Assembly (NCBI GenBank): GCA_029775855.1
Contig: JARVJZ010000002.1
Location: 32,001-96,000, forward strand
Length of the DNA: 64,000 nt
Source of the DNA: Nitrososphaeria archaeon
GTDB lineage: Archaea > Thermoproteota > Nitrososphaeria > Nitrososphaerales > JAAOZN01
Direction of reading: 5' to 3'
The notes beneath the pieces were generated by a model. It searched no databases and was not told the origin of the DNA. It was given only the letters and a program-made list of their open reading frames with translations. The position numbers were made by a program, and so were the translations under genes. Positions 37,105 through 42,516 of the stretch are shown in pieces (the first letter of the stretch is position 1; each line of letters opens with the position of its first letter).

Positions 37105-38124
37105 ATGAAGGCTGTAGTATATTATGAACATGGTGGAGCAGATAAGCTGATCTATGAAGAAAGAGAGAAGCCAAAAATTGGAGAAGGAGAAGCGTTAATT
37201 AAAGTTGAAGCTTGTGCGTTAAATAGACTTGACATACTGACTAGAAGAGGTGTTGTAAAGACCACAGCAACTCTACCACATATACTCGGTGGAGACATCG
37301 TCGGCTACATCGAGGAGCAGAAAGGAAGTAATCTAGAAATAGGCACACCAGTCCTTGTCTACACAGCAATAACTTGTGGTAGGTGCCAAGCTTGCCTTTC
37401 TGGTAAAGAGAACCGCTGCCAATTTCTTAAGATGATAGGCTTTCATACAGATGGAGGTTATGCAGAGTATGTTCGAGTGCCTATTCGAAACCTTATACCC
37501 CTTAACCCTAAAATTCCACTGGAGGAGTATGCTGCCATACCTATTGATTACACTACTGTGTGGCACGCTTTAGTTGAAAGAGGCAGTCTTAAGGTTGGTG
37601 AGAGTATCTTAATCTGGGCAGGCGGAAGCGGCGCGGGAACAGTCGCATGTAGATTGGCCAAACTTATGGGTGCTACGGTCTTTACAACCGTTGGCAGCGC
37701 TGACAAAGCTGAGAAGGCAAAGAGCTTTGCAGATTACGTATTTAACCACTATACTGATGATGTGCCTAAATCTGTGAAAGAGGCTACTGGAGGAAGAGGT
37801 GTTGATGTAGTCTTAGATTATGTTGGCTCAGCAACTTGGAGAAAGAGTCTTGAATGCTTAGCTGTAGGTGGTAGAATGATAACCTTCGGCGGATTAAGCG
37901 GGTTTAGTGGTGATGTAGATATAAGAGCATTCTACACGAGACACCTTACGCTCATAGGAACCTACTATGGAACAAAACCTGATCTCCATAAAGCACTAGA
38001 ATTTGTTGAGAAAGGACTTCTAAGACCTATAATAGATTCCATCTACCCGCTTAAAGATGCTCAGTCAGCGCATATTAGAATGGAGGAGAGTAAACACTTC
38101 GGAAAGATCCTACTCAAACCTTAA
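37105..38124 (+). CDS. Zinc-binding alcohol dehydrogenase/quinone oxidoreductase (MDR family)
   Basis: ALNRLD, CGRCQAC...C, GGSGAG and HFGKILL motifs. Confidence 0.9.
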   Translation: MKAVVYYEHGGADKLIYEEREKPKIGEGEALIKVEACALNRLDILTRRGVVKTTATLPHILGGDIVGYIEEQKGSNLEIGTPVLVYTAITCGRCQACLSGKENRCQFLKMIGFHTDGGYAEYVRVPIRNLIPLNPKIPLEEYAAIPIDYTTVWHALVERGSLKVGESILIWAGGSGAGTVACRLAKLMGATVFTTVGSADKAEKAKSFADYVFNHYTDDVPKSVKEATGGRGVDVVLDYVGSATWRKSLECLAVGGRMITFGGLSGFSGDVDIRAFYTRHLTLIGTYYGTKPDLHKALEFVEKGLLRPIIDSIYPLKDAQSAHIRMEESKHFGKILLKP

Positions 38125-41100
38125 GATACGGGTATCTTCAGCTCCCCTCTATGTATCATCTTTAACCCTTCAACAAATGCTTCAGCGTCTTCGTAGGTTG
38201 TTAGCACTGGAACACCTAACTCAACAGCCTTCCTCCTAATCTGATACTCATCCTCTAACATACTCGCGAACTTCTCTAAAACACTAGTAGAAGGTATGTT
38301 TATGATAAGTTCGAGCTTCCCTTCAACCAAATAGTCAAGAATGTTAGGTTTACGCTCTGGCTCGCTAATCTTATTCAAAACTTTAACACATAAACCCCCT
38401 TTCCTCTCCAAATATTCCGCTGTATGCTCAGTAGCATAGACATTAAAGTTGAGCCCGATTAACTCCTTTGTGAGGTTAAGTATTCGATCTTTCAATTGAA
38501 TGCCTCCTACTGTTATTAGTATGTTGCCATTAGGTTTAGGTATCTTGTAGCCTACCGCTATGAGCGCCTTTATTAAAGCCTCAAAAAAGCTCCTACCAAA
38601 ACACGCGACTTCCCCTGTTGAACGCATCTCTACACCAAGATGAGGATCTGCTCCGTCGAGCTGCATAAATGAAAATTGAGGCGCTTTTACACAGACTTGC
38701 GTCATAGATGAATCTCCTCTCGGCAAAGTTGGAATCTTACCGTTGAGTATCGCTAAGGCAGCAAGCGAAATTAGGTTCACGCCAGTGGCCTTGGATACAA
38801 AAGGCATAGATCTAGAAGCCCTAAGATTACATTCTATAACATAGACTATACCATCCTTATATAGAAACTGTATGTTAAAAGGACCCTTTATTCTAAGGCT
38901 CTTAGCTATCTTAGTAGCATACTCTACAGCGACTTGCTGAACATCTGCTGGAAGTCTTTGAGGTGGTATGCACATTATAGCGTCGCCAGAGTGAACACCA
39001 GCTTGCTCAACATGCTCTATAACCGCCCCAATATACACACTCTCTCCATCACAAACACCATCGATCTCAAACTCTTGCGCATCCATTATGAACTTACTTA
39101 TAACTACAGGATGCTCTGGGCTAACCTTCGCCGCCTTTAGCAAAAACTGCTCTAGATGCTTCTGCGTCCAAACGATTCTCATAGCTGCTCCACTTAACAC
39201 ATAAGATGGTCTTACCAAGATTGGGTAGGAGACCTTCTTAGCGAAGGCTTTAGCATCTTCTATGGAGGTGAAGGTGCTCCACTCTGGCTGTGGTATATGT
39301 AGCTCGTCTAAAAGTCTACTGAATTTCGCTCTATCTTCAGCTCTATCGATATCCACACTGTCTGTGCCTAGTATCTTTGCGCCGTATGCTGTTAAGGAGG
39401 TTGCAAGGTTATTAGGTATCTGCCCACCTACAGAGATTACAACACCAAAGGGGCGCTCTTTCTCATAGATGTCCAAAACCCGCTCTAGCGTCAATTCTTC
39501 AAAATAGAGTTTGTCACTCATATCATAGTCTGTTGAGACTGTCTCTGGGTTGCAGTTAACCACAATAACTTCTTCAACACCATTATTCTTCAGATCCCAA
39601 ACCATATTCATAGTAGACCAATCAAATTCAACCGAACTTCCTATCCTATAAGTGCCAGCACCTAAAACCATCACCTTCATCACATCCCTAAATTGTATAT
39701 CGTCTGTATCACCGTTGTAAGTAAAGTAAAGGTAGTTCGTCTTAGCCGGCCACTCAGCAGCTAAGGTATCTATCTGCTTAACCACCGGCACTATATTGAG
39801 CCTCTTACGAAGAAGTCTAACTTCAGACACAGACAACCCTATACACTCAGCTATCTGAGCATCTGAAAAACCTAGCTGCTTTGCTCTACGAAGAAGATCA
39901 GGAGCATCACCACTAGCTACTTTTCTCGCCTCTTTCCTTAAGATTCTTTCCATTTCGATGATGTTCTTGATCTTGTTTATGAACCAAGGGTCGATGCTGC
40001 TCAGCTTATTTATTCGTTCAACCGTAAAACCGGCTTTAAGTGCATCTGCTACATCAAAGATTATTTCATCGGTCATACGCTGCAGCCTAGCTTCGATTTT
40101 ATCCGGATCAACCAACGGTTCGTGTCTACTATCTGCTACAAGCCCATTCTTGCCTATGTCAAGCATTCTGATAGCTTTCTGTAGAGCTTCTTCGAAACAT
40201 CTACCGATAGCCATAACTTCCCCAACAGACTTCATCTGTGTACCTATGTTTCTAGTAACTTTATCGAACTTTGTTAAATCCCATCGCGGCATTTTAACAG
40301 TAACATAGTCAAGCGCGGGTTCAAAACCAGCTGTAGTTATACCAGTGACTTTATTGATCAACTCTGAAAGCGAGTAACCCAACATAAGCTTCGCAGCAAT
40401 GTATGCTATTGGGTAGCCTGTCGCCTTAGATGCTAGTGCTGATGAACGTGATAGTCTGGCGTTTATTTCAATAGCAACATATCTTTCTGAATTGGGTTCT
40501 AAAGCGAATTGTATGTTACACTCTCCTACTATTTTACAAGCTTCAGTAGCCTTTAAAGCAGCTGTTCTTAGAAGATGATATTCCCGATTGTTTAGGGTCT
40601 GTGAAGGGGCTATGACTATGTTATCGCCAGTATGGACTTTCATAGCTAAAATATTCTCCATATTACATACAGTCATACCGTTTCCATAGGCATCTCTCAT
40701 AACTTCATATTCGATCTGCTTCCAAGTTCCTATATACTCTTCAATAAGCACTTGATGCGTTAAGCTGCTCATCAACCCTCTGGTAACGATCTCCTCAAAC
40801 TCGTATTCGTTAAAGGCTACTCCACTACCCCTACCTCCAAGTGTATATGCTACACGAACCATAATCGGGTATCCTAGTTCATCAACAATCTTTTTCGCTT
40901 CTTCAAGCGAATATGCAGCTGCGCTTCTCGCTACGGGTATACCCGCGTCTAGCATAGTCTTACGAAACAAATCTCGATCTTCGGTAGCTTCGATGCCTTC
41001 TATGGGTGTGCCAAGCACCTTGACACCATACTTGTCTAAGACACCCCTTTTTGATAACGTGATACCACAGTTCAGAGCAGTCTGCCCTCCAAAGGATAGC

Positions 41101-41381
41101 ACGATGCCATCAGGCCTCTCAGCCTCAATGACTTCTGTAACGAAGTCAGCATTAACTGGTAGGAAGTAAACTTTTCCTGCTAACTTCTTATCCGTCTGAA
41201 TAGTAGCGATATTCGGGTTAACGAGAACAGTCTCTATACCCTCCTCTCGAAGGGCCTTAAGACATTGGCTGCCTGAGTAGTCGAACTAGCGGCTGCTTTA
41301 GCAGCTCTCGCCTGCTTCACCTATCTTAATGGCCCCACTGCCTAGGACGATAACCTTCTTTATAGAGCGGTTAAGTGGTAT
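38121..41381 (-). CDS. carB: Carbamoyl-phosphate synthase large subunit; exon 1 41381-41307 (ATA start), exon 2 41285-38121; 1079 aa when spliced
   Basis: Spliced N-terminus reads (M)PLNRSIKKVIVLGSGAIKIGEAGE|FDYSGSQCLKALREEG...NPNIATIQTD. It continues in frame into the tracked ORF (FGGQTALN, RSSALASKATG, NCNPETVSTD, MGS domain). Confidence 0.95.
41286..41306 (-). other. 21-nt BHB-type mRNA intron in carB
   Basis: GGCG AG^A GCUGC UAAA GCAGC CGCU AG^U: 4-bp central helix, two 3-nt bulges and a 5-bp intron hairpin. Contains in-frame TAA and TAG. Confidence 0.88.
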
Positions 41382-42516
41382 GGCTTCTCACCTCCATTCT
41401 TTGGGCGAACATGTCAAATATGTAAGTAGTATCATATGGTCCAGGAGAAGCTTCTGGATGATACTGCACAGCTAGTATAGGTTTGGCTTCGTGATACACC
41501 CCTTCTACCGTCTTGTCGTCTGCGTTTATCATCCATATATCTAGCCCACTCTTATCTATAGAATTTGGATCAACAGCGTATCCGTGGTTTTGGCTTGTTA
41601 TATAGTTGCGTCCAGTTTTAAGATCTATGCACGGTTTGTTCTGCCCTCTATGCCCATATTTCAGCTTATATGTATCCCCACCTAATGAAAGAGCGATTAT
41701 CTGCAGACCTAGACATATACCGAGCATGGGTATACCTTCATCCACAAGAGACTTTACAGTTTCAACTGTCTTCACACAAATCTTAGGGTCTCCAGGCCCG
41801 TTACTCACAAGCACCCCTTTCGGATTATATTCCATTATTTCTGACACTGAAGTGTTGTATGGAACACGTATGACTTTAAGCCCTCTTTTCAGTAGCTCCC
41901 TTATTATACCATACTTTACGCCACAGTCTATCAAGACAACTTTATGTTCTCCTTCACCATAGATAATAGGCTCTTTTACGCTAACCACACTTACAAAATC
42001 TTGTTCACCATATTTTTTAGCGCTAGCCAGTAGCCTCCTTACATCTTCTACATCAATCTTATCTTCTGCTACAGCTAATACACCCATCATAACACCTTGC
42101 ACACGGAGCTTCTTAGTTAGCTCACGACTATCAATGCCCTCAATGCCTGGCACACCTTCTTCATAGAGCCAACTGTCAAGACTCTTTTTAGATCTCCAGT
42201 GGCTAGGCGCCCTACAGAGCTCACTGACTACAACACCAGAAACTTGTGCTTGATCTGACTCGAAGTTTAGAGGTATATTATTTTGGTCTACATCACTGTA
42301 AAGGGGGACACCATAATTTCCTATAAGTGGGTACGTGAATGTTAAGATCTGCCCTCTGTATGAAGGGTCAGTTATGCTTTCAGTGTAGCCCACCATTCCT
42401 GTAGTAAATACTACTTCACCTACCTTTGTTGTTGGATAGCCAAAGCCGCGTCCCCAAAAAAGAGTGCCATCTTCGAGTAGGAGCGCAGCGTTATAGTCTC
42501 GTTTAGGAGCAACCAA
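41371..42516 (-). CDS. carA: Carbamoyl-phosphate synthase small subunit
   Basis: LEDG, TDPSY.GQI, SNGPGDP, GICLG, QNHGYAVD and QYHPEASPGP motifs. Confidence 0.97.
   Translation of the reverse strand: MVAPKRDYNAALLLEDGTLFWGRGFGYPTTKVGEVVFTTGMVGYTESITDPSYRGQILTFTYPLIGNYGVPLYSDVDQNNIPLNFESDQAQVSGVVVSELCRAPSHWRSKKSLDSWLYEEGVPGIEGIDSRELTKKLRVQGVMMGVLAVAEDKIDVEDVRRLLASAKKYGEQDFVSVVSVKEPIIYGEGEHKVVLIDCGVKYGIIRELLKRGLKVIRVPYNTSVSEIMEYNPKGVLVSNGPGDPKICVKTVETVKSLVDEGIPMLGICLGLQIIALSLGGDTYKLKYGHRGQNKPCIDLKTGRNYITSQNHGYAVDPNSIDKSGLDIWMINADDKTVEGVYHEAKPILAVQYHPEASPGPYDTTYIFDMFAQRMEVRSHTT
41388..41395 (-). promoter_or_regulatory. Shine-Dalgarno GGAGGTGA for carB
   Basis: Full-length SD 6 nt upstream of the ATA at 41381, inside the carA 3' end. 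Confidence 0.75.

Follow-up and report, generated by a model that had tools for sequence, protein, structure and literature searches.

An interrupted carB gene

The window analyzed here is a stretch of 64,000 nucleotides (nt) from a Nitrososphaeria archaeon (contig JARVJZ010000002.1, positions 32,001 to 96,000 of the forward strand). The genome it comes from (G000) comprises 1.51 Mb in 6 contigs, with 43% G+C and a completeness of 98%. On the minus strand of the window, the essential arginine and pyrimidine metabolism gene carB reads GGT GAA GCA GGC GAG AGCTGCTAAAGCAGCCGCTAG TTC GAC TAC TCA GGC, where AGCTGCTAAAGCAGCCGCTAG stands for 21 nt at positions 41286-41306. We propose that these 21 nt are very probably a bulge-helix-bulge (BHB) intron of the relaxed HBh' form, lying within the coding sequence and spliced by enzymes of the EndA/RtcB type. 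This interpretation is supported because contigs from two RNA sequencing runs lack the insert, inserts with compensatory changes are widespread at the same site in relatives, and genes for EndA and RtcB are present in the genome. The gene is divided as follows:

41307..41381, minus strand: carB exon 1, 25 codons, IPLNRSIKKVIVLGSGAIKIGEAGE, counted from ATA
41286..41306, minus strand: proposed 21-nt BHB (HBh') intron in carB, recognized from the sequence, absent from the RNA-run contigs (X8, X9) and present in the DNA contigs (X2, X3)
38121..41285, minus strand: carB exon 2, 1054 codons plus stop, beginning FDYSGSQCLK

Translation of the minus strand gives ...GSGAIKIGEAGE upstream of the insert and FDYSGSQCLK... 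downstream of it, and the insert itself contains two in-frame stops (TAA at 41298-41300 and TAG at 41286-41288). When the 21 nt were deleted in silico, the junction read IGEAGEFDYSGSQCLK, the frame was open to the stop at 38121 and the motif GEAGEFDYSG was restored. The whole-protein CarB profile TIGR01369 spans the site with a score of 1427 bits, with '1 TAG, 1 TAA' inside the match, and the listing of open reading frames (ORFs) of the window contained carB only as a 993-aa ORF from an internal GTG. An earlier reading of the sequence alone (the original prediction) had described an in-frame insert with both stops that splits GEAGE from FDYSG, and it matches the sequence and its translation letter for letter. 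The second-half motif of the protein, IGSSVEFDWS, is uninterrupted, as had also been stated. A second intact carB, which the original prediction had named as a possible objection, was not found when G000 was searched with TIGR01369; the only other match scored 62 bits.

Absence of the insert from RNA contigs and its predicted fold

DNA nearly identical to the window occurs in hot-spring metagenomes. Sixteen sequencing runs from 6 studies matched, 2 of which are metatranscriptomes (X8 and X9, two samples of one study); X1, X4-X7 and X10-X16 do not enter the evidence. The contigs of these RNA runs and those of two DNA runs from two hot-spring studies (X2 and X3) were compared over positions 40300-42300 of the window:

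X8, RNA contig of 319 nt, covering 41054-41393: 3 other letters differ; 21 nt at 41286 left out, depth 4.51 of 4.51
X9, RNA contig of 234 nt, covering 41109-41363: 4 other letters differ; 21 nt at 41286 left out, depth 2.8 of 2.8
X2, DNA contig of 60,447 nt, covering the whole compared stretch: 21 nt kept
X3, DNA contig of 9,834 nt, covering the whole compared stretch: 21 nt kept

Exactly 21 nt were missing in the two RNA runs and present in the two DNA runs, and '21 left out at 41286' was the sole indel reported in these contigs. The junction lacking exactly 41286-41306, for which the original prediction had proposed to look, was found in this way in assembled contigs of both RNA runs. No contig of unspliced carB RNA was present in the X8 and X9 assemblies, though contigs drop minor forms.

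In BHB motifs each bulge lies 3' of its strand of a 4-bp helix, and the archaeal splicing endonuclease cuts after the second base of each bulge. Read in the sense of the RNA (exon GGCG, bulge, hairpin, CGCU, bulge, exon), the carB site offers the following elements, where ^ marks the predicted cut:

41309..41312, minus strand: central helix H, 5' strand, exon GGCG (Gly and Glu codons), pairing with 41288-41291
41306..41308, minus strand: 5' splice-site bulge A-G^A, cut placed after 41307
41292..41305, minus strand: intron hairpin h', GCUGC-UAAA-GCAGC, in the minimum free energy (MFE) fold and backed by covariation
41288..41291, minus strand: central helix H, 3' strand, intron CGCU, from the comparison of pairing across homologues
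41285..41287, minus strand: 3' splice-site bulge A-G^U, cut placed after 41286, without a closing outer helix

The window thereby provides a 4-bp central helix (GGCG/CGCU) and two 3-nt bulges, AG^A and AG^U, on opposite strands and with the right handedness. Cuts after the second base of each bulge take out exactly 21 nt and join GAG to UUC; this junction, anticipated in the original prediction, agrees with that of the RNA contigs within an ambiguity of 2 nt. The inner helix h' has 5 bp and the exon-side helix h only ∼1 bp, which departs from the strict hBHBh' form and makes the motif a relaxed HBh' one. Both the pairing and this class assignment are those given in the original prediction. The MFE fold holds H, the first bulge and h'. 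No Rfam family matched the site, and no further copies of the 21-mer (≤3 mismatches) were found in G000.

Same-site inserts in related genomes

A first sample of 40 relatives was extended by 80 more loci, and 106 of 110 loci could be parsed. In the first sample, the top carB match contained stops in 7 genomes besides G000 and began only at profile position 24 in 7 further genomes; 10 of 30 carB loci had an insert exactly between GEAGE and FDYSG. Of the 106 parsed loci, 48 have an insert at this codon boundary, with 44 distinct sequences and lengths of 17-52 nt; 22 inserts measure 21 nt, and 24 of the 48 are not multiples of three. The closest carB locus, from an uncultured Nitrososphaerales metagenome-assembled genome (MAG), has 96% amino-acid identity. 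A congener (G001, locus L033) bears the window's 21-nt insert with one substitution, and in two other genomes of the window's own genus (G002 and G003) the insert is precisely absent. Named records with an insert include Nitrosopumilaceae, Nitrosotenuis (among them, with 21 nt at this site, locus L051 of the complete Ca. N. chungbukensis MY2 genome), Nitrosotalea, Nitrososphaera, Nitrosocosmicus and 'Nitrosomirales'. It was not seen in the loci labelled Thermoplasmata, Bathyarchaeia or Methanomethylicia, nor in two loci labelled as bacterial MAGs.

The predicted pairing is retained in these inserts. Helix H was paired in 169 of 176 cells over the 44 distinct sequences, vs. 21-60% when the partner was slid; all four pairs form in 37 sequences and three of four in the remaining 7. 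In 43 of the 44, helix h' forms 4 or more contiguous bp despite widely differing sequence, and the bulges are of the types AAA/AGA/AGT and AAT/AGT/ATT. In two lineages GGTG/CACC and GGTG/CACT stand in place of GGCG/CGCN. We carried out a formal count of covariation on 18 distinct 21-nt introns (9 pairs), with 500 shuffles and slid alignments as controls. Pairing was found in 93.2% of cells (94.4% for helix 1), vs. 81.9% in shuffles and 19-53% in slid controls. Both-sided changes occurred in 5 of the 9 pairs (22 cells), including 4 of the 5 pairs of h'. The covariation score of 0.434 compares with 0.211 for shuffles, none of the 500 being as high, and with 0.007-0.108 for slid controls. Compensatory changes in both helices of same-site inserts, whose conservation the original prediction had made decisive, are a feature of the carB intron structure.

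Among the 48 intron-bearing loci, helix H has GGC as its Gly codon in 46 and GGT in 2, the latter each with a compensating A. In 58 intron-less loci the codon is GGA (16), GGG (15), GGT (12), GGC (10) or an Ala codon (5), a contrast inflated by relatedness. As judged from these codons, the exon strand of helix H is under constraint as well.

The insert was then sought by pattern (GEAGE codons, 14-90 nt, FDYSG codons) in 401 genomes of the Nitrososphaerales, with the reversed pattern as a control. It was present in 226 of them (including the unpublished genomes G259 and G270), in 169 of the 267 that are at least 90% complete and in 52 of 82 genera; the reversed pattern gave 0 among the matches listed. 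The insert is near-universal in families such as f4 (9 of 9 genomes) and f15 (100 of 112) and patchy in others such as f13 (71 of 112) and f10 (40 of 97). In nine more families of the order, represented by 56 genomes, it did not turn up. A sample of 64 genomes from other orders within the class contained it once.

A FastTree phylogeny was built from the first 300 residues of exon 2 (105 rows); as a gene tree, unrooted for this purpose, it cannot tell gain from loss. The intron trait changes 8 times on this tree, vs. a mean of 34.6 when shuffled (0 of 500 shuffles as low), and the starred branches force at least 5 changes. In one large clade, 39 of 42 rows bear the intron. The pattern fits an intron that would be old and mostly vertically inherited in the Nitrososphaerales, with several precise losses.

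Two loci outside the order were noted. The one genome of another order, a sister order (G438, C32:4848-4896), has a same-site insert of 23 nt with a GC-rich hairpin, which may reflect a deeper origin of the intron or gene transfer. A MAG labelled Candidatus Woesearchaeota (L104:1469-1700) has a 17-nt same-site insert with the same H helix; its carB contains an in-frame TAG 32 codons into exon 2, without extra length there, which could reflect a pseudogene, a recoded stop, an error or a mis-binned contig.

The Nitrososphaerales are the order with the ammonia-oxidising archaea of soils and oceans. The archaeal AmoA profile PF12942 gave no match in the 98%-complete G000, and control genomes gave no match either, so that this negative carries no weight for or against ammonia oxidation by the organism.

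We also searched G000 for further introns. A relaxed structural scan returned 117,211 motifs vs. 116,955 in a mirror-image control, or 4,967 vs. 5,235 when only ORF-bridging motifs were counted; when start-less downstream frames and coding potential were included, the counts were 317 vs. 296 and 218 vs. 182 loci. Such scans are without power. Strict filters left 2 real loci, one of them carB, and no mirror locus; because these filters were modelled on carB, they leave room for other introns in the genome. The candidate second intron at C2:235194-235219 proved false, as a continuous ferredoxin-like frame reads through it. The cbf5 gene of G000 is one open frame, with no stops and no intron. The wider system of micro-introns that the original prediction had envisaged holds only in that the same carB intron is widespread; it found no counterpart in G000, where the carB-modelled scan gave no second interrupted gene and cbf5 is uninterrupted.

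Proposed splicing, its alternatives and the meaning for CarB

Two EndA-family genes are encoded in G000, together with one RtcB (593 bits). The EndA-family matches to PF01974 score 97 and 82 bits, the ORFs measure 185 and 180 aa, and they lie in the regions C1:250462-250695 and C1:5132-5386. One EndA ORF has a Tyr...His...Lys pattern, which we take to resemble the catalytic one; the other lacks it. This gene content is that of a host with RtcB and a putative EndA of the broad-specificity type, the heterotetramer being predicted.

A tRNA search of G000 with ARAGORN returned only 33 tRNAs; introns were predicted in 15, of which several are oddly placed and one measures 503 nt; the tRNA set was probably detected incompletely, owing to non-canonical or multiple introns.

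Upstream of the insert, carB overlaps its neighbour:

41371..42516, minus strand: carA, an ORF of 381 aa with its TAA stop at 41371-41373, overlapping carB
41388..41395, minus strand: Shine-Dalgarno-like GGAGGTGA, 6 nt upstream of the carB ATA, function presumed from its sequence

Between the upstream in-frame TGA (41388-41390) and the junction, exon 1 contains no ATG, GTG or TTG. The usual Met position is occupied by ATA (41379-41381), for which no difference is listed in the compared DNA-run and RNA-run contigs; at this position G002 and G003, the congeners without the intron, carry GTG. The carA TAA lies 5 nt downstream of this presumed start, an overlap that suggests translational coupling, which might permit a weak start codon in carB. 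The 27-aa unspliced peptide of the original prediction stands if translation starts at this ATA; otherwise it falls, as exon 1 offers no standard start. A canonical start is missing in 23 of 48 intron-bearing vs. 4 of 57 intron-less carB genes, with CTG, ATA and others at the MPK position. The tree offers only 5 independent pairs, with a median p of 1; with relatedness taken into account, the link between intron and non-canonical start is not established.

In the proposed mechanism, exon GGCG would pair with intron CGCU in the carA-carB transcript to form the 4-bp central helix, with GCUGC/GCAGC as the inner helix. A heterotetrameric (alpha-beta)2 EndA would cut after the second base of each 3-nt bulge, and RtcB would presumably ligate the exons to give GAG-UUC. 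The spliced mRNA would encode a complete CarB with an intact GEAGEFDYSG, and translation of the unspliced mRNA would stop after 27 codons. The excised intron would be released and probably circularised. The intron is situated 25 codons downstream of the carB start, and carB overlaps carA, so that splicing has to take place in competition with translation.

Several points weigh against splicing of this kind. The RNA evidence consists of assembled contigs, not raw reads; their depth is low, at 4.5 and 2.8; a single study supplied the two RNA runs; DNA from the samples of X8 and X9 is absent among the matched runs; and the two RNA libraries were not independently shown to be DNA-free. As to structure, the exon-side outer helix is essentially absent (∼1 bp), the MFE fold shows the 3' side with a bulge of 1 nt, not 3 nt, and the outermost H pair is G-A in 7 of the 44 distinct sequences. 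Folding energy at the site is no better than that of shuffled sequences (z = -0.33), so that by itself it is not evidence for the intron. An AG repeat at the junction makes its placement ambiguous by 2 nt, and because of this repeat the spliced product fixes the cut sites no better than 2 nt.

The alternative that survives best, though very unlikely, is removal of the insert from RNA by an agent other than EndA, such as a different pair of nuclease and ligase, a self-cleaving RNA or an editing or deletion activity of unknown kind. The relaxed motif without an outer helix and the lack of an Rfam match are compatible with it, and the role of EndA is itself a deduction. What is conserved, however, is exactly what EndA recognizes: a helix of 4 bp, bulges of 3 nt that face opposite strands with the right handedness, and an inner helix that varies in sequence and length. 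The predicted EndA cuts give the observed junction, and alpha-like and beta-like EndA and RtcB are encoded. The inserts, 17-52 nt long and hardly conserved in sequence outside the helices, also seem too small for known ribozymes.

More improbable still is that the insert is real but unspliced DNA in a dead or dying carB, and that the RNA contigs derive from a co-occurring intron-less allele or strain. A precise presence/absence polymorphism does exist within the genus (G002 and G003), contigs drop minor variants, and the low depth, the single study and the lack of same-sample DNA for X8 and X9 leave formal room for a very recent intron-less allele. Yet over carB the window shares just ∼78% identity with G002 and G003, against 3 of 319 and 4 of 234 differing letters for the RNA contigs. 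The X8 contig has two variants (41073 C>T and 41091 A>G) that are common to the insert-bearing DNA contigs, and the same 21 nt are missing from two different strain types, that of X8 and that of X9. For carB of the window and of G001, each with the intron, dN/dS is 0.049 over 1054 codons at a dS of 0.85, which excludes a pseudogene; values against intron-less congeners are 0.024 and 0.039, and the gene is under strong purifying selection. Frame-breaking inserts make up 24 of 48, yet carB is intact across the 226 genomes, and there is no second carB.

It is scarcely credible that the mRNA keeps the 21 nt and the ribosome hops over them or reads through both stops: the window's insert is in frame and forms a hairpin like some bypass elements, but the RNA-run contigs lack it, read-through cannot rescue the 24 of 48 homologous inserts whose lengths are not multiples of three, and 7 extra residues would fall inside the conserved GEAGEFDYSG. 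An assembly or sequencing artefact of the window, against which the original prediction had cautioned, has a probability close to nil, given that nothing was found in its favour, that the same 21 nt occur in two independent DNA assemblies from two studies (X2 and X3) and that the G001 insert carries one substitution.

The BHB intron of carB is of the same mechanism class as that of cbf5; it adds another gene and another lineage to that class and has a far wider distribution. The BHB intron in the cbf5 pre-mRNA of Crenarchaeota was reportedly described by Watanabe in 2002. In a later study, cbf5 is the only confirmed archaeal pre-mRNA intron as of 2009 (Yokobori 2009, PMC2738675). A further one knows no archaeal reading frame other than cbf5 to be interrupted by a BHB intron and adds a 5'-UTR (untranslated region) intron in Haloferax (Schwarz 2020, PMC7714728). 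The cbf5 intron (PMC2738675) and the carB intron are both short, BHB-type and often relaxed, lie inside a protein gene and are linked to a hetero-oligomeric endonuclease. Each seems to be old and inherited vertically, with precise losses in some lineages, and each is confusing to gene callers. They differ in that cbf5 encodes an RNA pseudouridine synthase and its intron belongs to Desulfurococcales and Sulfolobales, vs. arginine and pyrimidine metabolism and Nitrososphaerales for carB (PMC2738675). The carB intron, unlike that of cbf5, lies 25 codons from the start, and it works like the cbf5 intron while falling outside that family by gene and lineage.

Like the carB intron, the 5' UTR intron of HVO_1309 in Haloferax volcanii is described as an endonuclease substrate in mRNA whose removal matters for expression; it differs in lying in an untranslated leader with the frame uninterrupted, and in its homodimeric EndA and canonical motif (PMC7714728). 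The HBh' tRNA introns of the TACK archaea share with carB the motif class, the size range and the requirement for an (alpha-beta)2 EndA of broad specificity (Kaneta 2018, PMC5829648). By comparison with these, carB has an mRNA host with no tRNA body, and conserved codons, Gly-Glu and Phe on either side of the junction, encode half of H and parts of both bulges.

No report of the carB intron was found in full-text searches of the open-access literature, supplements being outside their scope, nor was one mentioned in passages of PMC12397907, PMC3655853, PMC6379350, PMC2738675, PMC13149111, PMC7714728, PMC4836417, PMC13037477 or PMC5829648. In eukaryotes, HAC1/XBP1 mRNA is spliced by Ire1 together with tRNA ligase or RtcB, a proven stress-regulated switch. 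As in carB, a short intron is excised by an endonuclease and a ligase, independently of the spliceosome, for a full-length protein to be made; the differences lie in the endonuclease (Ire1), in another stem-loop signal and in the regulation, which is proven there. For carB, the 'regulatory switch' that the original prediction had offered is speculation, and just the spliced form was assembled in both RNA runs.

We consider it unlikely, though conceivable, that the micro-intron is a conserved checkpoint and not a neutral relic, with CarB output set by BHB folding and the rate of EndA/RtcB splicing. Ribosomes and EndA would then compete for the same RNA, in a gene translationally coupled to carA, and the weak starts, AUA in this gene and CUG or others in related ones, would give splicing time by delaying initiation. 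If true, the supply of arginine and pyrimidines would be tied to RNA-processing capacity, temperature or stress.

The 120 best protein-database matches comprised 118 full-length intron-less forms and 2 N-terminally shortened ones, and are only weakly informative on mis-annotation. Two public gene calls (P0004 and P0007), of this carB or near relatives, begin inside exon 2 (METVLVNPN... and MNPNIAT...) and lack the nucleotide-binding GSGAIKIGEAGEFDYSG segment. With the intron present in more than half of the sampled genomes, gene callers shorten carB; the gene could also be called a pseudogene, a case of which we saw no example. In metabolic reconstructions, either error can give a false impression of auxotrophy for arginine or pyrimidines.

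On the literature to 2020 (PMC7714728), carB would be the second case of an archaeal reading frame interrupted by a BHB intron, as well as the first in a central metabolic enzyme and the first in the Nitrososphaerales. The intron would make carB a natural case of splicing alongside coupled translation without a nucleus, and of long-term intron retention and precise loss.
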